Origin: Candidatus Riflebacteria bacterium HGW-Riflebacteria-1
GTDB lineage: Bacteria > Muiribacteriota > Ozemobacteria > Ozemobacterales > Ozemobacteraceae
Direction: 5' to 3'
DNA: 64,000 bases
NCBI GenBank assembly: GCA_002839445.1
Contig: PGYB01000006.1
Location: 64,001-128,000, forward strand
Shown piece by piece: positions 12,209 through 55,442 of this stretch. A model generated the notes under the pieces. That model was not told the origin of the DNA, searched no databases, and saw only the letters and a list, made by a program, of their open reading frames with translations. How positions within the stretch are numbered: the first letter of the stretch is position 1; the number at the start of each line of letters is the position of its first letter. The position numbers were made by a program, and so were the translations under genes.

Positions 12209-12690
12209 AATGTTTGCCTCTCGTATGTCTGGTTTGGCGGTGATTATTAACAGCTAACACCTATATTTGGGGGAGATCTCAGTCTCCGAAGCTGTCTCAG
12301 GTATCTATGAGATCGCTAAGACATCTTTCTGGTGCCTCGCGATGACAGGAATCATCTCTATATGGGTGTTTAACAAACCCCTGACCTAAAGATATGCATA
12401 ATACACCAAGAAAGCGAGATAAAAATGACGGTGCAGGATTTGTGAATTATTACACAGTCGAAAACAGCAGTTATTTCCAGGTCAACGTCGCCACCACTGC
12501 CCACGTCACCCGCAAAAAGTTGCTCACAGACTTTTTCGAGTCGTTTACCATGAGCTGGTAACGCTTCTTTTACTGAAACACAGATTTATCAAAAAAAGTT
12601 CCCCGAAGCTCCTCGAAATCGTGCGAATGGGTATTGCTGGTTGGGCAAATTTTCATTAAAATATAGATAAATATTTTAGGAGGATTTGAC

Positions 12691-13314
12691 ATGCTTTGTA
12701 GTAAATGGTTCAAAACACTGGCACTGGTAATGTTTTTTGCTGGTCTGGTTTCGGTTGCGCAGGCGGCCACTTATGGTTATATGGTTGTGCGCGGCAAGGA
12801 TCAGGCTATGATTGAACGCGAAATTACGACGATCGAGCGCCTGATCAAGACCTGGCCCAACGGCGAAGTTCTTTATGTTCATACCGTTAAAGCCGGCGCC
12901 ATGTTTTTCAAGCGCATTACCTCGACAATATTCTTTGCCGGCAACCGCACCGAGATTTCGAAATTCCTCACCCAGGGGCCCTATGAAGGCGATTATCTGC
13001 GTGACATTACCGTCAGCTTCAGCTACAGCAGTCTGCGCGACAAAAATGGTTACGATGGCGAAATCAACACAACTTTCACCCGCAAGTTTACCAATATCCG
13101 CAAGGCTGTTGAAACCGTGCAGGGCAAGAATGCCGAGATCCTCTGGAACGAGCTGAAAGACAGCAAGGTTTCTGCTTATAAAAAGCACCTGGTCAGCGAA
13201 GAACTGATCGCACCGCGCGTCAGCGTAGTGTTTTACAGCATGCAGCCAACCGAAGACAACCGTCTGCTCGGTATCAGCTACAGCGCAGACAAGGTCAGCA
13301 ACAGCCGCAAGTAA
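12691..13314 (+). CDS. Secreted hypothetical protein
   Basis: Strong AGGAGG RBS. Signal peptide MLCSKWFKTLALVMFFAGLVSVAQA. The longer antisense ORF 12676..13494 is judged spurious. Confidence 0.6.
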   Translation: MLCSKWFKTLALVMFFAGLVSVAQAATYGYMVVRGKDQAMIEREITTIERLIKTWPNGEVLYVHTVKAGAMFFKRITSTIFFAGNRTEISKFLTQGPYEGDYLRDITVSFSYSSLRDKNGYDGEINTTFTRKFTNIRKAVETVQGKNAEILWNELKDSKVSAYKKHLVSEELIAPRVSVVFYSMQPTEDNRLLGISYSADKVSNSRK

Positions 13315-13447
13315 TATATCGCACGCAAGAAGCGCTTTGGCATTAATGCTGCCAAGGCGCTTCTTTTGTATACAAAGGAATGAATCAATTTGGCGACATG
13401 TTTTTTCGTGAGGAATCAGAGATACTGATGAGCGATTGGCCAGTCGG

Positions 13448-13500
13448 TCGATTACGATCAGGATTCCGATTACGATTACCGCTGCGCTGAGCACGATTAA
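13448..13500. repeat. Weak copy of the CGATTA-hexamer intergenic motif (locus A)
   Basis: tcgattacgat...ccgattacgattacc...cacgattaa upstream of the cyclase operon. Confidence 0.4.
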
Positions 13501-13569
13501 AGCATTTTAGTTGCGCGACATTCAATGGTAGTAATATAATTAGTAACAGTGGATCAGGGAGCGTGAATC

Positions 13570-25455: not shown

Positions 25456-25464
25456 GACGCCGAG

Positions 25465-27477: not shown

Positions 27478-28455
27478 TTAGCTGAACGCGAATATCAGAA
27501 TGTTTCCGACAATCAATATGAATACATACCAGAAACGGCAGATTTTATCGAGATATATTGCCATATCAAAGCGGCGGCGCTTGGCGTAATTGTTGTTAAC
27601 CACGGTCTGCACCAGCGCGAGAAAAATGACGACGTAAAAGAGCATGAAAATTTTGTCTGACATCAGCAGATAGCCTACAGAAGGCAGCGCGTCAGCCTGG
27701 GAATTGTGCAGCGCGATTGCCGAGAGAAGTGCGGTGATGCAGATACCGCACTGCGCCTCGAACTCGCTGGCGTTTATGTAGAATACCACGTAAGCCATGC
27801 CAGCGATGATGAACAGCGGCAAAATGAACTTGATCAGATGCGGCAGAAACAGTCGTTTCAGGTTGACTCTGAATGTGAGGCGCGAATAACTCGAAGTTTT
27901 TTTTGAGCCAAGCCCAAAGTCGGTCTTGTAGTGGTGAGCGTCAATGTCGCACGCCGCGCCGTTGCGTTGCCAGTCTGGCACCAGCATTTCCGGCTCGAGC
28001 CAGAGGTTGTAGTCTGCCGAACTTTCCGTGTCAGGGGTGAATAGTATCTTTTCAACGGTGTTTTCAGCATCTTCGATCACTATAGGAAGACTTTGCCGGT
28101 CAAATGGATATGACTGCAACCTGAAATGGCCGCGAAACCTTCCTTTAATGCGTTGCGACCACTGTTTTTTGCCCGACGCACTCGTGGCACTGGCAATTGG
28201 CGTGGCGCTCTCGATGTTGCCATTCATGAATTCGATGTTTTCTGGCACCCAGCTGCTTTCGGGAGGCGCCTTATACCAGATGTAAAAATCAGCGAAGAAT
28301 TCGCTCTCTTTAACATCGAGATGCGCGATGTCGAGAATATACAAGCCAATTTCGATCTTGGTGGGTTGCGTCTCAGTCGCGTAAACAGACGGCAAGACCA
28401 GCAGTGTCATGAATAAAACGGCAAACAGAGTAATCTTCAGCTTGTGAATTAGCAT
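27478..28455 (-). CDS. Prokaryotic pentameric ligand-gated ion channel (pLGIC, GLIC/ELIC-like) homologue
   Basis: Signal peptide, then about 200 aa of beta-rich extracellular domain with SYPFDRQSLPIVIED (the FPFD loop motif, no cysteines). This is followed by four hydrophobic helices M1-M4 and a post-M2 ALPSVGYL motif (compare GLIC SLPKVSYV). Confidence 0.75.
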   Translation of the reverse strand: MLIHKLKITLFAVLFMTLLVLPSVYATETQPTKIEIGLYILDIAHLDVKESEFFADFYIWYKAPPESSWVPENIEFMNGNIESATPIASATSASGKKQWSQRIKGRFRGHFRLQSYPFDRQSLPIVIEDAENTVEKILFTPDTESSADYNLWLEPEMLVPDWQRNGAACDIDAHHYKTDFGLGSKKTSSYSRLTFRVNLKRLFLPHLIKFILPLFIIAGMAYVVFYINASEFEAQCGICITALLSAIALHNSQADALPSVGYLLMSDKIFMLFYVVIFLALVQTVVNNNYAKRRRFDMAIYLDKICRFWYVFILIVGNILIFAFS

Positions 28456-28759
28456 GCTTTAAATCTAGCAAAAAATCCAACATTTTTAAACAAAATCATT
28501 CTGGGACAGCACCCTTTGGGAAAAGCGCACTGGCGAAGTTTGCACATCGCAATCGCATCAAACCGTCATCCTGCACGCAGTCGCAGGATCCAGAATGACA
28601 GAGAGAAGTCAGCAGAATGACGAATAGAAGGCATTAGAATGCTCAAACAAGGATTCGTCATCACTGCGCCCAGTCACAAAACATCTATTATACTTTTCAT
28701 AAAAGATTCGTTCACAGCAAAAGACTAGACACAGAGTTGCCGTTGCAATTGCCAGCAGC

Positions 28760-28831
28760 AGCGATTACGATTGCGATTACGCGCACGAAAAAGTAAACCC
28801 CAGAACAATGCAGAAGGTATTTACGAACGAA
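28760..28831 (+). repeat. Dispersed intergenic repeat, copy B (CGATTA hexamer tract plus conserved 17-mer AGGTATTTACGAACGAA)
   Basis: cagcgattacgattgcgattacgcgcacgaaaaagtaaa...caatgcagaaggtatttacgaacgaa. It is about 75% identical to copy C at 49989..50068 in the same orientation and abuts the esterase stop codon. Confidence 0.6.
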
Positions 28832-28832
28832 G

Positions 28833-29516
28833 CTACTGGCTTAGGGCTTCGAGAACCCAGGTGAGCGCTTCTTCGCGAATTTCTTCGGGCGCGGTGCGAT
28901 GGCCGCCCTCGAACTCATACCACTTTATCTGCCAGTCGAGGCTTTTCAAAAACTTGCGGTCCTCTTGCATCAGCTTGTAATTAAAGTCGGTCGGACTGGT
29001 TAAAAAGGCACAGACCTTGCCGCGCGGGTAAGTGTCTTTGTGCTTGAGACTGTTTTCATGAATATACCCGACGCTGGTGATTACCGCCGCAACTGTATCT
29101 GGATGAAAAAAAGAAAACAGATGCGAAGCCATGCCGCCGCCAGAAGTTCCCACCGCTATGATGCGGTCAGGCCTGATCGAGTATTGCACTGCGACGCGTT
29201 CGTGAATGAGGTTGCGCAGGCGATTGAGGTAGTTCGGTATATCCATGCCGTTCTTGATAATTTTTGACGCCAGAATAATGCATTTATGGTTGTCGGCGTG
29301 CCCGCGCCAGGTAGCGACAGTGTCTTTGGCATTGGCCGAAGGCGAAAAGCCGACGATCAGCGGATACCTTTCTCCAGCCGCAAGACCTTCGGGAACATAA
29401 ATCAGGTATTCATTTTCTTCAAAAGTGCCGCTGGTAACCGTTTCGTCAGCGCTGCAGATACCAGGCAGATAAGTCAGCAGAAAAACAACAGCTAACAGAA
29501 TATTGCAGATTCGCAT
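28833..29516 (-). CDS. Secreted alpha/beta-hydrolase (esterase/depolymerase-like)
   Basis: GTSGGG nucleophile elbow (GxSxG). Signal peptide starts at MRICNILLAVVFLL. GAGGT RBS lies before ATG 29516. Confidence 0.65.
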   Translation of the reverse strand: MRICNILLAVVFLLTYLPGICSADETVTSGTFEENEYLIYVPEGLAAGERYPLIVGFSPSANAKDTVATWRGHADNHKCIILASKIIKNGMDIPNYLNRLRNLIHERVAVQYSIRPDRIIAVGTSGGGMASHLFSFFHPDTVAAVITSVGYIHENSLKHKDTYPRGKVCAFLTSPTDFNYKLMQEDRKFLKSLDWQIKWYEFEGGHRTAPEEIREEALTWVLEALSQ

Positions 29517-29553
29517 ATTTACCTCTAACTGACTACGCCCAATAACGATGTTG

Positions 29554-29796
29554 TCAGTGCATAAGATACAAGGCACCCAGAAGCAGAGCAAGCACAATAA
29601 AGCTAACCAGCAGCAGTGAAAGCGCACCCAGCTTTTCGAGCAGGAACTCAGAATACGTCTGTCCATCGTCAGGAGAGAGCTTGAAGATAACTTTTATCGT
29701 GTCAATAATTACCGAGAAATTGGCGCCAAGAGCTCCGGCCATCGAGTCTTCAGCCTCATGACGTGAGCCCCCGGGATTTTTACGTCTAAGAAACAT
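29554..29796 (-). CDS. Small protein with a C-terminal TM helix, hypothetical
   Basis: 80-codon ORF with C-terminal LGALSLLLVSFIVLALLLGALYL. Confidence 0.35.
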   Translation of the reverse strand: MFLRRKNPGGSRHEAEDSMAGALGANFSVIIDTIKVIFKLSPDDGQTYSEFLLEKLGALSLLLVSFIVLALLLGALYLMH

Positions 29797-29863
29797 CCTT
29801 GTCTCCTGGAATTATTATACAGGTAAGCCTTTGTTACACTTCTACCGCCGGGCTCTCGGCAGT

Positions 29864-47311: not shown

Positions 47312-47525
47312 TGCCAACGTTTAAATAATCTGCGGTAATCCTTAAATCTGTGGATACTCTTCAGAAGAGCTCGTATGATTATTATGATCAGCTTGTCCGA
47401 GAACATAGTTCAAACCAGACATCTCGCAAAGTCCTTATGAATAGGCAAATGGATTGTTGTCTATAGACTTTTAGAGCAATTCAGGTTATTATCTTGCCAA
47501 AATTACAGCATGGGGATAACCAATA

Positions 47526-49196
47526 ATGAACTATTCAGATGTAGCAGCGTGCCCGGCGGTCTTGCAGCAGAAACATATTGCGTGGTGGCAGGGTGATCAC
47601 GAACAGCTGTCCGTGATGTCTGAAGCCGTAGCCAGAACTCTTTCCGAAATCAACCGGCCTGTCTTTGTCATTCTCAAAGATGGCCAGCTTGCTTTTGCCG
47701 CAGCCGGCACCCTTTCTTTTGATCTGACAACAAGACCGGTCAAAAGTCTGCCGCTGCTCGCCATGCTCCCCCCCTGCCCGCTTGAGAATCTTGGTGACAC
47801 CTCGTTTTGCCGCGATCACGGTCTGAAACTGCCTTATGTTGGCGGTTCGATGGCGCACGGCATCAGTTCGCCAGAGATTGCCATCGCGCTTGGCCAGCAC
47901 GGGATGATAGGTTTTATCGGCGCTGCCGGCGATTCCCCGGCCAAGGTCGAAAAAGCTATTTTACGTATGAAAAGCCTGCCTGAACCAATACCGTTCGGCT
48001 TTAACCTTATTCACAGCCCCAACGAGAAAGGGCTTGAAGACGAAATCGTCGATCTATATCTCAGACATGAAGTGAGATTGCTCGAAGCCTCGGCTTTCCT
48101 CGCCATGTCATTGCCGCTGGTGCGTTATCGCGTCACCGGTATTCATGAAGATGAAAACGGCAATATTATCACGCCAAACCGCATTATTGCAAAAGTCAGC
48201 CGTGTTGAAGTCGCGTCGAAGTTCTTCGCGCCGCCGCCGGATAAAATGTTGCAAAAGCTTGTGGACACAGGAGTGATTACTGAGCAGCAGGCAAAGCTGG
48301 CCGCACAAATTCCGGTAGCGCAGGATCTGACTTCTGAAGCAGACTCTGGTGGGCATACTGACAATCGTCCGGCGGTATCACTGCATCCAACAATGGTCGC
48401 GCTTAAAAACCGCATGCAAAAAGAATATAACTATAAACAGCCGTTGCGCGTCGGTTTTGGCGGCGGCATCGGCACGCCGGCTTCGGCGGCAGCCTCGTTC
48501 GCCATGGGCGCTGCCTACATCGTGGTCGGCTCGGTGCATCAGGCATGTAATGAATCCGGCACTTCTGACGCGGCGCGAGCTATGCTTGCCGGCGCCGGTC
48601 AGGCAGATATTGCCATGGCTCCAGCTGGCGACATGTTTGAAATGGGTGTAACCGTGCAGGTTCTCAAGCGCGGCACCATGTTCGCCATGCGTGCCCAGAA
48701 ACTCTATGAAATTTACCGCAAATACGAAAGCATCGAGGCAATACCTGCAGCTGATCGCCAGATGCTCGAAAAATCAGTCTTTCAGGAAAACCTCGACACG
48801 ATCTGGGCGCAGACTGCCGATTTTTTCAGGCAGCGCGATCCATCACAACTCGAGAAAGCCGAAAACGACCCGCACCACAAAATGGCACTGATTTTCAGAT
48901 GGTATCTCGGCAAGTCTCCGCGCTGGGCAGTTGCCGGCGAAGAAGCGCGCAAGGTCGACTACCAGATATGGTGTGGCGCTGCCATGGGCGCCTTTAACGA
49001 ATGGGCGAAAAACAGTTTTTTTGAAGACCAGATAAATCGAAAAGTGGTCGACGTAGCCATGAACCTGCTTTATGGTGCAGCTCTTGAACTGCGCCTGACG
49101 CAGCTGCGCAACCAGGGCATTGTTCTGCAGGCAGCTCTGAATCAGGTTTCCCCCAGGCCGCTTGACCAGATAGAAAAACTTGCTGACGCCTGCTGA
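47526..49196 (+). CDS. PfaD-family enoyl reductase (FMN-dependent, nitronate-monooxygenase-like fold; trans-acting ER of PUFA/polyketide synthases)
   Basis: LKLPYVGGSMAHGISSPEIAIALGQHGMIGFIGAAG matches the PfaD core. About 550 aa with an N-terminal extension. Confidence 0.7.
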   Translation: MNYSDVAACPAVLQQKHIAWWQGDHEQLSVMSEAVARTLSEINRPVFVILKDGQLAFAAAGTLSFDLTTRPVKSLPLLAMLPPCPLENLGDTSFCRDHGLKLPYVGGSMAHGISSPEIAIALGQHGMIGFIGAAGDSPAKVEKAILRMKSLPEPIPFGFNLIHSPNEKGLEDEIVDLYLRHEVRLLEASAFLAMSLPLVRYRVTGIHEDENGNIITPNRIIAKVSRVEVASKFFAPPPDKMLQKLVDTGVITEQQAKLAAQIPVAQDLTSEADSGGHTDNRPAVSLHPTMVALKNRMQKEYNYKQPLRVGFGGGIGTPASAAASFAMGAAYIVVGSVHQACNESGTSDAARAMLAGAGQADIAMAPAGDMFEMGVTVQVLKRGTMFAMRAQKLYEIYRKYESIEAIPAADRQMLEKSVFQENLDTIWAQTADFFRQRDPSQLEKAENDPHHKMALIFRWYLGKSPRWAVAGEEARKVDYQIWCGAAMGAFNEWAKNSFFEDQINRKVVDVAMNLLYGAALELRLTQLRNQGIVLQAALNQVSPRPLDQIEKLADAC

Positions 49197-49911
49197 TACA
49201 AATCCTGATTTTACCAGACCACGCGCTGATATCTGGATAATCGATTCCGGCCGTTTTGCCGACAGCGCTGAAACATTGCGCGGTTTACTGGCGCCAGATG
49301 AGTTGACACGCTATGAGCGCTTTGCCTGTCGGCAGACCGCTCTTACCTGGTTGACGGCAAGAGCCAGTCTGCGCTTTCTGCTTGGCAGATATCTCGATCT
49401 GCCGGCGCGCGAGCTCGCGATTCATACCAGCGAAAATGGCAAACCATTTGTCGAAAACATGTATGATCTCTACTTCAATGTCAGCCACAGTGCTAATATT
49501 GTTGTGATTGCCATGACCGGCTGGGCGGTCGGCATAGACGTCGAAAATCTCAGCCGTAAGGTCGACAGCGCGGCGGTGCTGCGCCGCTTCTTTTCGCCGA
49601 CTGAGCAGGCCAGCTGCGCCGCAAATCAGGTGATCGACGCGCAGAAAACTTTTTTCAGAGGCTGGACACGCAAAGAGGCTGTGCTAAAAGCTACTGGCGA
49701 AGGCATTGCCGGCCTCGCGCACAACGAAATCAACTTTGCCCCCGGCTTGACCAGAGCCATGCTCACCTATCGTGGCTCACAAGAGGCTGCCAGCAGTTGG
49801 TTTTTTTACGAGTTCGAACCGGCACAAGGCTATATCGCCGCACTCGCCTGCCAGTCGCCTGCGCTGGCTATAAGCGAAAAGCGACTGCAGCCAGCTTCCC
49901 TCAACGACTGA
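49180..49911 (+). CDS. 4'-phosphopantetheinyl transferase (Sfp/EntD type)
   Basis: GIDVE, FSPTEQ and WTRKEAVLKATG motifs. Non-ATG (TTG) start overlaps the upstream stop. Confidence 0.7.
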   Translation: MLTPADTNPDFTRPRADIWIIDSGRFADSAETLRGLLAPDELTRYERFACRQTALTWLTARASLRFLLGRYLDLPARELAIHTSENGKPFVENMYDLYFNVSHSANIVVIAMTGWAVGIDVENLSRKVDSAAVLRRFFSPTEQASCAANQVIDAQKTFFRGWTRKEAVLKATGEGIAGLAHNEINFAPGLTRAMLTYRGSQEAASSWFFYEFEPAQGYIAALACQSPALAISEKRLQPASLND

Positions 49912-49988
49912 ATCTACGGGCAAAAGCTCAGATCGTCTGGCGATGAACAACGGTCTTAGAATGTTTACTGAATCATTTTTGTAAGCCG

Positions 49989-50068
49989 GCGATTACGATT
50001 ACGCACACGAGAGTGATTGCGAGCAGCCAAAAGAAAGCAAAACAATGTCGCAGGTATTTACGAACGAA
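49989..50068 (+). repeat. Dispersed intergenic repeat, copy C
   Basis: gcgattacgattacgcacacgagag...caatgtcgcaggtatttacgaacgaa. It shares the hexamer tract, acgcRcacga, aacaatg and the 17-mer with copy B. Confidence 0.6.
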
Positions 50069-50154
50069 AATAACTGTAATTGGTAATACTCGCTTGATCC
50101 TGTGTGAGTTTCGTGGCAAAATCAAAAGCGACCAATAAGTTATGGAGAATTAAA

Positions 50155-50784
50155 ATGGCGGGTAAAGCTCAGCGTCAACCGAAAACAAAGTCTGAATTTA
50201 CTTACGGGGATTACCTCACATGGCCTGACACAGAGAGATGGGAACTGATCGACGGTGACGCCTACGCGATGACTCCGGGTCCCGACGCAGATCATCAACG
50301 TATTCTGGTCAACTTCTGTGTTACCATCGGTATATTTTTGAAGGGTAAGAAATGTGAGATCCTTCCGGCACCTTTTGATGTTCTGCTGCCCATCGGCGAC
50401 GAGGCCGATGAAGATGTTAAGACCGTTGTTCAACCTGACGTAATTGTTGTCTGTGACCCTGATAAAATAACCCGACGCGGTTGCCGTGGCGCACCGGACT
50501 GGGTTATCGAAATTCTTTCGCCTTCGACCGCCAGTCGCGACCAGATTTTAAAACGGCGGCGTTACGAAAAGGCCGGCGTTAAAGAGTATTGGATCTGCAA
50601 CCCGACTGACCGTGTGATTTTCGTTTATCATCTGCACAAAAACAAACTTGTCCTGTTCGAAATCTATGATGACAAGGCAAAAATCGAAGTAGCAACGCTG
50701 CCCGGGTTGACACTTGACTGCAGTGAGGTTTTTCCGCCAGCCCCGCCGGTAATTGTCAGAGAATCGCCGGCGGTTTATCTCTGA
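50155..50784 (+). CDS. Uma2-family (DUF820, PD-(D/E)xK-like) endonuclease
   Basis: GGAGA RBS. Motif pattern WELIDG...E...DVIVV...PDWVIEILSPST typical of Uma2. Confidence 0.65.
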   Translation: MAGKAQRQPKTKSEFTYGDYLTWPDTERWELIDGDAYAMTPGPDADHQRILVNFCVTIGIFLKGKKCEILPAPFDVLLPIGDEADEDVKTVVQPDVIVVCDPDKITRRGCRGAPDWVIEILSPSTASRDQILKRRRYEKAGVKEYWICNPTDRVIFVYHLHKNKLVLFEIYDDKAKIEVATLPGLTLDCSEVFPPAPPVIVRESPAVYL

Positions 50785-52348: not shown

Positions 52349-53165
52349 GAACGTTATGGAGCGGTATTGCTGGCTGATTTTTCTCGTTCTTTTTAGCGTT
52401 ACTCTGGCGTTTTCGTTTCAGCTGGGCAGCGACACGCCGTCGGTGCGTGGCGGGCTGTCTTTTGTGCCGCAACCAGAGTATGTCGAGCGCGTGAGCGGAA
52501 CTTTCAGGTCTGCCGTCGCGCAGTTCTTTTATATGCGCGGCGCTCTCGAACTGGCCGGCGATACATCAAAAAAAGTCGACATGCTTCTTGAACTTTTTCA
52601 TCTGGCACTGCGCCTTGACCCCCGGCTCGTTCAGGCCGCTTTTCTCGGTGGCATGGTCGCGCCAGGCAGCGAAGAAGATCTCAAAAAAGCCGCGGTTTTT
52701 CTTGATAAGGCCGTTGAACTGAACCCGAATAATTGGCGCATTTTATATTGGACCGGCTTTACTTATCTCGAACTTGGCGATATCCGCAACGGCACTGACC
52801 GCTACTGGAAAGCTTCGCTGCTGCCAGGTGCCCCACCCTTTCTGCGCTTTTCGGCTGCCAATCTGCCGACGAAGGGACGCACACTCGAACAGTCAATCAT
52901 CGAAACCGAAGGAATGCTCGAATCGGTAGACAACGACGATGCTCGCGAGTGGATAATGCTGCGCTTGCTGTGGTTGCATAACATGTTGATGCTTGAGAGC
53001 AAGGCAAGAGAATTCAAAGACCAGGTCTACCGCTACCCGGTCGAGCTCGAAGAACTGGTTGAGCGCGGCCTGATCAAGGAAATCCCGAAAGACGACATCG
53101 GCAACGGCTTCTACCTCATGCATCCCGGCGATCCCGAACAGGGATATATGGTGCGCAGCCTTTAA
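52338..53165 (+). CDS. Hypothetical protein with TPR-like helical repeats, co-transcribed with the ABC-2 transporter
   Basis: N-terminal TM segment followed by an alpha-helical repeat composition. Start is ambiguous (52296 or 52338). Confidence 0.45.
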   Translation: MSIENVMERYCWLIFLVLFSVTLAFSFQLGSDTPSVRGGLSFVPQPEYVERVSGTFRSAVAQFFYMRGALELAGDTSKKVDMLLELFHLALRLDPRLVQAAFLGGMVAPGSEEDLKKAAVFLDKAVELNPNNWRILYWTGFTYLELGDIRNGTDRYWKASLLPGAPPFLRFSAANLPTKGRTLEQSIIETEGMLESVDNDDAREWIMLRLLWLHNMLMLESKAREFKDQVYRYPVELEELVERGLIKEIPKDDIGNGFYLMHPGDPEQGYMVRSL

Positions 53166-53475
53166 TCGTTTTTTTTTGCGTCATCGCTAAAATCTTTTTT
53201 AAATTAACCACTCCCATTGTAACCCGCTTTAAAAGACGTGTTTCATGTGGACATCTATTTTTCGCAGCAAATGCGATCTATGCGCAATTTGCAGGACCGC
53301 CACGAAAATGCGCAATAATAGAAACACCAATTAGATTTCAGGGCGGTACACCTCAGACGGATTCAGCAGCATTTTTTTTGGCTGCAATCCGACCTGTGAA
53401 ATGCGCTTAAACAGGCGTATTATCACGCTTCACACCTGCCGATAGTAGTATTAAGCAGCAGTACAGGAGCAGCAT

Positions 53476-54714
53476 ATGTCGTTACTTACAGTCGTTCCTT
53501 TTATCGCATGGTTGTTAACCATAGCCCTGGCACCATTATTATTCGAACACTTCTGGGAAAAAAATTCCAACAAGGCTGTGTTGAGTTTTCTTTTCGCGTC
53601 GCCAGTTCTGGCCTATCTGCTGACCCATAACATGAGCCATGAGCTCTGGTTGAGCACCGAAGAGTATTTTTCATTCATTGTACTGCTCGCGTCATTGTTT
53701 ATTGTTTCAGGCGGCATTCTCGTCGAAGGCGATATCGAGGCAACGCCGCGAAATAACATTTTTCTCTTCATCATCGGCGCGATTCTGGCCAACTTTATCG
53801 GCACCACCGGTGCCAGCATGGTGCTGATCAGACCACTGCTCAAAATCAACTCGCAGCGCACCCGCATGTCACATGTTCCGATCTTCTTTATTTTCATCGT
53901 CAGCAACATCGGCGGCTGCCTTACCCCGCTTGGCGACCCGCCGGTTTTTCTCGGCTTCCTCAAGGGTGTGCCGTTTTTCTGGACTCTGAGCCTTTTCCCG
54001 ATGTGGCTCTTAAACATGACATTTATTCTGACCATATTCTACCTGATTGACAGCTACAACTATAACCGTGAACCTGCAACAGCTCTCAATCGCGACGCTG
54101 CTGAAATTCGTCCGATCAAGGTTTCGGGAAAACGCAATACCTGGTTTCTGGTTGGCATTATCGCTGCTGTTTTCCTGCCGGCACCAGCAAGAGAAGTAAT
54201 GATGATCGCAATGAGCATGATGTCACTGCGCGTAACTCCTACTCGATGCCGAGAACAGAACAGCTTTTCATTCACGCCGATAAATGAGGTCGCCATACTT
54301 TTTGCCGGGATATTTGTCACCATGGTTCCCGCCTTGCTTCTGCTCAAGGAGCGCGGTGCCGAACTTGGCCTGACCCAGCCCTGGCAGTTTTTCTGGGTAA
54401 CCGGCGGTCTCTCGTCGTTTCTCGACAACGCCCCGACCTATCTGACAGACTTGTCGCTTGCTCAGAGCATGGCGGCCCACGACAGCAGCCTTGCCAAAGA
54501 AGTGGTTGGTATTCCGGCCGTGTATCTAAGAGCTATCAGCGCCGGCGCAGTGTTTATGGGCGCCAACACCTATATCGGTAATGGGCCAAACTTCATGGTT
54601 AAGACGATCTCTGAATCTTCAGGTGTGAAGATGCCATCATTCTTCGGTTACTTTGCTTATGCCTGCGCGATTCTGATTCCGGTTTTCCTGATTGACACCT
54701 GGTTGTTCTTCTAA
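53476..54714 (+). CDS. ArsB/NhaD-superfamily (ion-transporter) membrane permease
   Basis: About 11-12 TM helices. Segments IGGCLTPLGDPP and NAPTYL resemble NhaD/ArsB-type permeases. Confidence 0.6.
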   Translation: MSLLTVVPFIAWLLTIALAPLLFEHFWEKNSNKAVLSFLFASPVLAYLLTHNMSHELWLSTEEYFSFIVLLASLFIVSGGILVEGDIEATPRNNIFLFIIGAILANFIGTTGASMVLIRPLLKINSQRTRMSHVPIFFIFIVSNIGGCLTPLGDPPVFLGFLKGVPFFWTLSLFPMWLLNMTFILTIFYLIDSYNYNREPATALNRDAAEIRPIKVSGKRNTWFLVGIIAAVFLPAPAREVMMIAMSMMSLRVTPTRCREQNSFSFTPINEVAILFAGIFVTMVPALLLLKERGAELGLTQPWQFFWVTGGLSSFLDNAPTYLTDLSLAQSMAAHDSSLAKEVVGIPAVYLRAISAGAVFMGANTYIGNGPNFMVKTISESSGVKMPSFFGYFAYACAILIPVFLIDTWLFF

Positions 54715-54785: not shown

Positions 54786-54864
54786 TTACGATTGCGATTA
54801 CGATTACGATTACGATTAAGAGAACGAGAACGAGAACGAGACGAGACGAGACGAGAACGAAACA
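54786..54864. repeat. Microsatellite-like tract: (ACGATT)x5 followed by (GAGAAC)x3-(GAGAC)x3-GAGAAC
   Basis: ttacgattgcgattacgattacgattacgattaagagaacgagaacgagaacgagacgagacgagacgagaacgaaac, 60 nt upstream of the first pseudopilin-like gene. Confidence 0.7.
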
Positions 54865-54926
54865 AGTCGAATTGATTGGCGCGGTTATGATTTCGCAGAC
54901 TGGCAATTTGCGGTATACTCTCAGAA

Positions 54927-55442
54927 ATGCTGAGCCACTACTCAAAAACTTCTGCGACAACACTGGTTGAGATTCTTATCGCGACAACGATTCTCGCGTT
55001 CACCATGGCGCCGATCGTCGCCATCTTTACCTTCGCCTCGCGCAGCATGGGTTCAAGCGTTCACCGCATTCAGGCGCAGTTTCTCGCGCACGCTGTTCTT
55101 GAATCGATAAAGGCCGAAGTTCACCGCAATCCTTCCGCGATCAATCAGTATCCCAGCCGCTTCGAAGTTTCGGCGGTGCGCAAACCGCTTGGCTTTTTCG
55201 CAACGTCGCGGGTTAATTTTTTCAACAACGTGCTCGGGCCTGACAAGCCGATCACGCCAGATTCGCCGCTCTACAAGGAGTTTGACCAGTTTCGCATAAT
55301 AGTTACTGTTCTCGGCACCGGCAAGGTGTCTGAGCTCAGTGTTACCGCCGAGTGGGCCTTTGACGGCAAAGATCAGAAGCTCGAAATAATTGGAAAAATC
55401 GACTCGCGACCGTACCGCTTTTCCAAATTCGAGCGCTATTAA
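54927..55442 (+). CDS. Prepilin-type N-terminal domain protein (minor pseudopilin-like) with Ala at -1
   Basis: MLSHYSKTSA|TTLVEILIATTILAF: a short leader, then the [FT]TL[IV]E motif with Glu at +5 and a hydrophobic helix. Confidence 0.5.
   Translation: MLSHYSKTSATTLVEILIATTILAFTMAPIVAIFTFASRSMGSSVHRIQAQFLAHAVLESIKAEVHRNPSAINQYPSRFEVSAVRKPLGFFATSRVNFFNNVLGPDKPITPDSPLYKEFDQFRIIVTVLGTGKVSELSVTAEWAFDGKDQKLEIIGKIDSRPYRFSKFERY

Follow-up and report, generated by a model that had tools for sequence, protein, structure and literature searches.

The DNA considered here is a window of 64,000 nucleotides, the whole stretch that was analysed, from Candidatus Riflebacteria bacterium HGW-Riflebacteria-1, and I will be concerned with a short repeat that lies between its genes. 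One copy (B) abuts a minus-strand ORF (28833 to 29666), whose stop codon comes 1 nt after a 17-mer, AGGTATTTACGAACGAA, and lies about 300 nt upstream of the pLGIC gene (27478 to 28455, minus strand, with a match to PF02932); since the ORF has no Pfam match, "esterase" is used for it as a putative label only. Another copy (C) sits between the PPTase gene (49180 to 49911) and the Uma2 gene (50104 to 50784), both confirmed by Pfam. A preliminary description had placed two co-oriented copies at 28760 to 28831 and 49989 to 50068, and the positions, every block listed for them, the order of the blocks and these gene neighbourhoods were all borne out. The limits were drawn too short, however, as copy B reaches left to 28688 (by its likeness to copy D, below) and copy C reaches right to about 50092, an extension that rests on a tail common to R1 and R2, two copies in another species. 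The count of two was likewise too low, for the window holds a third, degenerate copy (F) at 54788 to 54879 and a tract-only relative (A) at 13448 to 13502. The parts of the family in the window are:

13448 to 13502, plus strand: tract A, a hexamer tract with a different tail, ACCGCTGCGCTGAGCACGATTAAAG, representing a second sub-family (TRF).
25456 to 25464, no strand: the unoccupied site of copy D, a 9-nt spacer, GACGCCGAG, from the alpha-amylase stop to the Smr stop.
28688 to 28760, plus strand: left module of copy B, TTATACTTTTCATAAAAGATTCGTTCACAGC...AATTGCC, common only to copy D and outside the coordinates first given.
28761 to 28793, plus strand: hexamer tract of copy B, GCGATT ACGATT GCGATT ACGCGC ACGAAA AAG (TRF period-6 array at 28762 to 28781).
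28794 to 28831, plus strand: core of copy B, an A-rich stretch, AACAATG, 4 variable bases and the 17-mer (read from the sequence).
28832 to 28842, plus strand: shortened tail of copy B, GCTACTGG..., overlapping the esterase-like stop codon at 28833 to 28835.
49912 to 49988, plus strand: putative left part of copy C, beginning directly behind the PPTase stop (by inspection only).
49989 to 50092, plus strand: the whole of copy C (nhmmer E 4.9e-19).
49989 to 50028, 50045 to 50068 and 50069 to 50089, plus strand: tract of copy C, its core with ATG and 17-mer, and its tail, AATAACTGTAATTGGTAATAC.
54788 to 54879, plus strand: copy F, degenerate, with a tract (ACGATT/GCGATT)5 (ACGAGA)3 (ACGAG)n and then the tail GAACGAAACAAGTCGAATTGATTGG (TRF, nhmmer).

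With as many as 3 mismatches allowed, the window still has exactly two occurrences of the 17-mer, at 28815 to 28831 in copy B and 50052 to 50068 in copy C (shuffle mean 0.08), and the tracts begin with GCGATTACGATT at 28761 and 49989, giving a tract-to-17-mer distance of 54 nt in copy B and 63 nt in copy C. When copy B was compared by blastn with the whole window it returned copy C at 73.8% identity over 65 nt (E 1.5e-5); the identity originally proposed was about 75%. A profile of the left module (nhmmer) matches only window 28688 to 28764 and, in the sister strain, L057 13146 to 13069, and the stretch at 49912 to 49988 resembles this B/D module only faintly and is, by inspection, a candidate left part of copy C with a provisional boundary. 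The tail of copy B marks the right edge of a strain-variable segment, with homology to L057 resuming at 28843. Copy F aligns with the core profile over model positions 3 to 87 (nhmmer E 0.0013), lacks the ATG together with the opening bases of the 17-mer, and has a tract that runs directly into a tail 88% identical to that of copy D over 26 nt. Copies B and C are confirmed as genuine members of a small, apparently non-coding, dispersed intergenic repeat family.

The shared unit is about 90 to 110 nt long and has three parts, a hexamer tract, a core and a tail. The tract repeats (A/G)CGANN 3 to 12 times, using the units ACGATT, GCGATT, ACGCGC, ACGAGC and ACGAGA, with the exceptions that part of copy F has period 5 and that the R1 tract is decayed; the core consists of an A-rich stretch, CAATG, four variable bases and then A(G/A)GTA(T/G)TT(A/G)CGAACGAA; and the tail, ATAAGTGAAATTGGTATTAC, runs 20 nt beyond the 17-mer in copy C, R1 and R2. 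In the window species a 73-nt left module may precede this unit, making an element of about 155 nt whose ends read TTATAC...(G)TATT(AC/GG). According to TRF, the period-6 arrays differ in length and unit type. A second tail, ACCGCT(T/G)CGCTGAGC(A/G)CGA.TAA, is joined to the same hexamer tract in three places, namely in A at window 13448 to 13502, in variant E, which is the sister strain's version of the B site and has two arms inverted, and in HGW-Riflebacteria-2 at the position that R2 takes in GWC2_50_8. Because the tract is joined to different tails, the repeat family is modular and the tract is its common joint.

All six copies adjoin the 3' end of a gene or a terminator, in intergenic regions that are co-directional or convergent, and the gene-sense strand corresponds to the reverse complement for B, R1 and R2 and to the forward strand for C and F, while D lies between convergent genes. 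Copy F has the CitMHS terminator on one side and the pseudopilin-like gene (54927) on the other. Tract A lies in an intergenic region, with TTGCGC-N18-TATAAT about 30 nt downstream of it and the cyclase gene (13570) 93 nt downstream. The neighbours of copy B, oligopeptide ABC transporter genes and a pLGIC-BtpA-deaminase-Smr run, are syntenic in relatives. The idea of B and C as borders of a mobile or variable island was dropped, given this synteny of the genes on both sides of copy B, and the suggestion that the copies might flank a variable region found no evidence of B and C bounding one.

Several observations on these neighbourhoods deserve recording in their own right. The minus-strand ORF of 272 aa at 12676 to 13494 that overlaps tract A is spurious and absent from the protein collection; the real gene there is 12691 to 13314 on the plus strand, which encodes a 207-aa protein of unknown function that does occur in that collection, is conserved across the phylum and whose 90%-identity cluster has members from several Riflebacteria MAGs, including GWC2_50_8. 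The first pseudopilin-like gene (54927) has a TATACT 8 nt upstream of its ATG (window 54913 to 54929) with no Shine-Dalgarno sequence between, an arrangement of letters that suggests a leaderless mRNA. The intergenic region upstream of CitMHS shows a 22-nt length difference between two otherwise near-identical assemblies (L075 6276 to 6565 and L073 6276 to 6587, window about 53165 to 53476).

Now considering how far the family extends, an exact scan for the 17-mer through 185,579 species genomes (one per species) gave 45 single hits, 44 of them chance matches in unrelated genes; the sole true locus is in Riflebacteria GWC2_50_8 (L049), where the tandem copies R1 and R2 occupy a convergent intergenic region. 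A profile built from B, C, R1 and R2 (nhmmer) retrieved copy D in the sister strain (L002/L057, E 1e-13 to 7e-22). The preliminary description had called for a wider search and allowed that its two sites might be all there is; with D, R1, R2 and F, the family now comprises six copies of 90 to 160 nt, spread over five loci and coming from two strains of one species and from a second species, and these copies are diverged, at 74 to 84% identity. The strain copies of copy C are all identical. A metagenome scan with ATGNNNNARGTATTTRCGAACGAA returned only L051 (the same organism as L049) and two chance matches, the 11 matches from a scan of IMG/VR are all to the 17-mer alone, and blastn against plasmids and phages gave no match. 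There are no copies in about 100 kb of syntenic DNA of related species (those with pLGIC homologues 74 to 87% identical), nor at the locus orthologous to L049 in three other Riflebacteria. The family is so far confined to a few Candidatus Riflebacteria, at low copy number.

Three further sequences were noted. The chance 17-mer match in L050, a high-GC metagenome contig, is at 2025 to 2085, where GCGTTTACGAACGAA is present three times at the hisH/hisA junction and adds (FTNEA)3 to the N-terminus of HisA. A 137-nt non-coding stretch at window 47324 to 47459, intergenic and upstream of the NMO/FabD gene at 47526, is 82% identical to L049 3270 to 3405 although the flanking genes differ; it holds a DnaA-box-like TGTGGATA(A)C and CTGCGG.AATCCTT, and may represent a further conserved non-coding element or RNA. 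HGW-Riflebacteria-2 has an intergenic inverted-repeat element, GTCATCGCGAGGAGTGAAGCGACG...CTTCTCGCAGTGAC, at L089 12730 to 12830, which is unrelated to the repeat family and of a type common in many uncultured bacteria.

Copy D is a 152-nt block between the stops of the convergent alpha-amylase and Smr genes of strain L057, where the window strain has 3 nt and the flanks on either side are 97.6% and 98.4% identical. At this site L057 reads TGA-GACGC[element]G-TCA, the window strain TGA-GACGCCGAG-TCA and the outgroup L065 TGA-G-TCA; L066, which has the same pLGIC protein as L065, has the identical junction with a single G between the stops, and in a second outgroup (L068/L069) the alpha-amylase and Smr genes overlap. 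On these alignments copy D is a gain in one strain lineage. Copies B and D are 76.8% identical by blastn over 151 nt, with the likeness starting exactly at TTATAC, and homology to the left 70 nt of D covers window 28688 to 28760, which is why the true start of copy B is placed at 28688 and its extent at 28688 to 28842, about 155 nt. An identity of just 77% means that B was not the template for D, and closer source copies, so far unseen, are implied elsewhere in that genome. In the one filled and empty pair compared there is no target-site duplication at D (GACGC[element]GTCAG against GACGC-CGA-GTCAG, with TGA-G-TCAG in the outgroup).

The B site also varies, in that the window strain and the sister strain carry different tract-bearing sequences there. 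Three relatives (L065, L068 and L070) have a gene for a histidine kinase / response regulator of 743 to 760 aa between the esterase-like and pLGIC genes; it has been lost in the window strain and the sister strain, and repeat-bearing sequence fills the junction (28456 to 28832). The same intergenic region contains a 22-nt tandem repeat (CAGAATGAC..., 2.3 copies) at window 28591 to 28641, where several Logan contigs break, and CAGAATGAC-like motifs recur in R1 and in variant E. In the sister strain an unrelated segment of 1076 nt, bounded by TGACAGAGGACTAG repeats, takes the place of the esterase-like gene's 5' part and of the region upstream of it (window 29424 to 29863, against L057 5271 to 6346 in reverse complement), and the rest of that gene is 93.7% identical between the strains, compared with about 98% elsewhere.

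What, then, is this element? The account I favour, with a probability of roughly 0.5, is that it is a low-copy, modular, MITE- or BOX-like mobile or recombining repeat family of the Riflebacteria, and three other accounts have to be weighed against it. It is improbable, to begin with, that each copy is a small gene, either for a small RNA or for a short peptide, multiplying in the manner of the E. coli LDR and SIB repeats. The peptide candidates would be a plus-strand M-x-K-V-F-T-N-E..., a Thr/Ile-rich product read through the tract, or a hydrophobic minus-strand product like that of a type I toxin-antitoxin system, and there is something to be said for each: B, C, D, R1 and R2 all have an ATG that precedes the 17-mer by four bases; codon 2 is a synonymous Pro codon (CCG/CCA/CCC) in D, R1 and R2; the minus-strand frame, FVR(K/N)YL.H followed by hydrophobic VI/LV runs, is open in 5/5 copies; and in R2, F, H2, K and B the Thr-Ile frame has an ATG or TTG 1 to 9 codons ahead of the tract. 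However, R1 and R2 were retrieved by a pattern that required the ATG (D was retrieved without it), copy F has neither the ATG nor the first part of the 17-mer, the peptides are of arbitrary length past residue 10 (10 to 29 aa), the minus-strand start codon is missing in B, D, R1 and R2, so that the ORF expected of a type I toxin-antitoxin system is not found, and in R2 this frame is out of phase with the tract. A six-frame comparison across copies and tract phases found no frame in which the start is conserved or the phase from tract to core stays the same. Nucleotide conservation persists across shifts of frame, the conserved tail falls into different frames in different copies, and the tail of copy C has a 1-nt indel. 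None of four tested ORFs overlapping B and C is present in a collection of 15 billion proteins (the esterase-like ORF as delimited is also absent from it), and a profile of the most ORF-like frame had no match at E<=10 among 5.8 billion protein clusters, and a coding element was dropped on these grounds, with some small probability left to a short M-x-K-V-F-T-N-E peptide. A Thr/Ile attenuator leader of the thrL kind, with (ACG ATT)n read as (Thr-Ile)n, was rejected for want of terminator-like sites and hairpins; the genes downstream are a cyclase, Uma2, pseudopilin-like or antisense gene, not genes for Thr/Ile biosynthesis, and the unit elsewhere reads Thr-Ser or Thr-Arg. The structured small RNA first offered as an option fares no better: single copies fold no better than their shuffles (z-scores -1.45 to +1.17) and have no terminal hairpins, the consensus fold of B and D is weak (-12 to -16 kcal/mol), and of the 50 pairs that the two strand folds predict one is compensatory, and Rfam has no match at the gathering score to the window or to four loci, its permissive E-value mode giving only noise at E>=1. 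Shine-Dalgarno-like sites are absent from the elements, which contain zero promoter-like (sigma-70) and zero terminator-like sites, and ECF-type, extended -10 and sigma-54 readings of the core were set aside by eye, as the required spacing was not fitted.

I would give similarly long odds to the proposal that the hexamer tract is a protein-binding array and the core a second site, the whole being a portable regulatory cassette, whether as a DNA operator array of the kind bound by ribbon-helix-helix repressors or as an RNA site for a ring-shaped protein that takes up GAU/GAG triplets every 5 to 6 nt. This would make sense of the fact that no 10- to 12-mer in the window is more over-represented than the tract sequence CGATTACGATT, which is on the plus strand every time, with all four window arrays co-oriented; of arrays A, C and F lying 47 to 93 nt upstream of co-oriented gene starts, A just upstream of TTGCGC-N18-TATAAT; and of the inverted tracts of variant E. 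It would also suit the 17-mer, which does not vary among B, C and R1, the 4-nt spacer beside it being variable, and whose identity across two species that are at most about 70% identical in the protein compared could mean a sequence-specific function, not neutral decay. This identity, and the three tract-bearing loci just upstream of co-oriented genes, count against the mobile-repeat account. Yet B, D, R1 and R2 are not placed as A, C and F are, since D, R1 and R2 lie between convergent genes, with nothing to regulate, and copy B faces the 3' end of a gene; the units vary widely (ATT, AGC, AGA, and period 5 in part of F), as slippage predicts and an operator under constraint does not; the element has no candidate binding protein linked to it; and the element is absent from the orthologous promoters in relatives. 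Less likely again is the fuller version in which hexamer arrays and 17-mer form a portable two-part cassette, spread by insertion, for a DNA- or RNA-binding protein specific to Riflebacteria, and I regard as just as doubtful that its reader would be, for example, a multimer taking one CGA/GAK triplet per subunit and that the cyclase, Uma2, pseudopilin-like operon and pLGIC genes would form one regulon. Least likely is that there is no family behaviour at all, and that the copies are leftovers of a local duplication or rearrangement or a convergence of CGATTA microsatellites. Microsatellite tracts can indeed arise independently, the B site is in a rearranged region from which the histidine-kinase gene of relatives has been lost, and very few copies are known, but the likeness goes beyond the tract to the 17-mer, CAATG and the 20-nt tail and recurs in another species and at an insertion site, and the chance expectation for the 17-mer pair is the 0.08 given above; copies D, R1 and R2 largely refute this account.

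A mobile or recombining repeat accommodates these results best, and of the options first offered it is the MITE- or REP-like mobile remnant that has gained most support, there being further copies at sites unrelated to each other, both a sister strain and a second species contributing some, and one insertion polymorphism. The copies have entered new intergenic sites, typically beside gene 3' ends and in either orientation, and their varied orientation, the gain of D and the variation at the B site point to a mobile or recombining selfish repeat, not a fixed cis-regulatory element. Copies would be carried passively as selfish or neutral DNA and might spread either through mobilisation in trans by an enzyme or by recombination through the shared tract; the hexanucleotide microsatellite would expand and contract by slippage, and any effects on neighbouring genes would be incidental. 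Small, non-coding, dispersed copies with insertion polymorphism, as in MITEs, are what is observed (six copies, one polymorphic insertion). Against this account, terminal inverted repeats are weak: a repeat finder gives a 10-nt subterminal pair of 90% identity in B (AGATTCGTTC / GAACGAAGCT), only an unrelated 8-nt pair in D (AAAGACTG / CAGTCTTT) with one arm in the flanking Smr sequence, and no inverted pair in copy C, and two further resemblances, a 7-nt TTCGTTC / GAACGAA pair in copy D and a weak one between the tips TTATACT.TTCA and TAATACCAATTTCA (TTATAC / GTATTAC), were seen by eye only. No transposase is annotated within the annotated parts of the window. An IS200/IS605-like insertion beside a fixed tetranucleotide was dropped, the flanks being ACGC in one case and TCTA in the other and subterminal hairpins being absent, as was a TA target duplication of the IS630/mariner kind, for which the predicted empty site differs from that observed.

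Among known families, the BOX element of Streptococcus pneumoniae is built of boxA, a variable number of boxB modules (a 45-nt unit) and boxC. The present repeat, set beside what is generally known of BOX, has the same conserved end modules, variable-number internal module and dispersed intergenic placement, but its variable module is a 6-nt microsatellite, it has no predicted stable RNA structure and there is no sequence relationship. REPs are imperfect palindromes of 20 to 40 nt, present in very high copy number and linked to RAYT transposases; the REP/BIME sequences, like the repeat described here, are located at gene 3' ends in co-directional or convergent and not divergent regions, whereas the Riflebacteria repeat is not palindromic and forms no stable stem-loop. 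The LDR and SIB/QUAD repeats of E. coli are similarly intergenic, of about 150 nt or more, with a very hydrophobic short frame on one strand, yet here there is no conserved start codon, ribosome-binding site, promoter or terminator and the frame is broken in some copies. The bacterial MITEs, among them the enterobacterial RU-1/ERIC, RU-2 and RU-3 (PMC2759123) and the Correia elements, are like this repeat non-coding, intergenic, 100 to 170 bp long and found in either orientation. Bacterial MITEs and this repeat both have several diverged copies per genome and presence/absence differences between close strains; unlike MITEs, the repeat lacks a target-site duplication and a stable hairpin, its inverted repeats at or near the ends are weak and short, its observed copy number is very low and no related insertion sequence was identified. 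Miniature remnants of mobile DNA ordinarily insert in this way, and the pattern is no evidence for a new regulatory system.

The finding opens no long-standing question, and its importance would be greater only if the tract were a protein-recognition array. If the mobile-repeat account is true, Candidatus Riflebacteria, a phylum for which metagenomes are the only source, would have its first described family of small dispersed repeats. Such repeats mark intergenic sites that vary between strains, could break assemblies and do generate spurious small ORFs, and the hexanucleotide microsatellite inside them could be used to mark strains.
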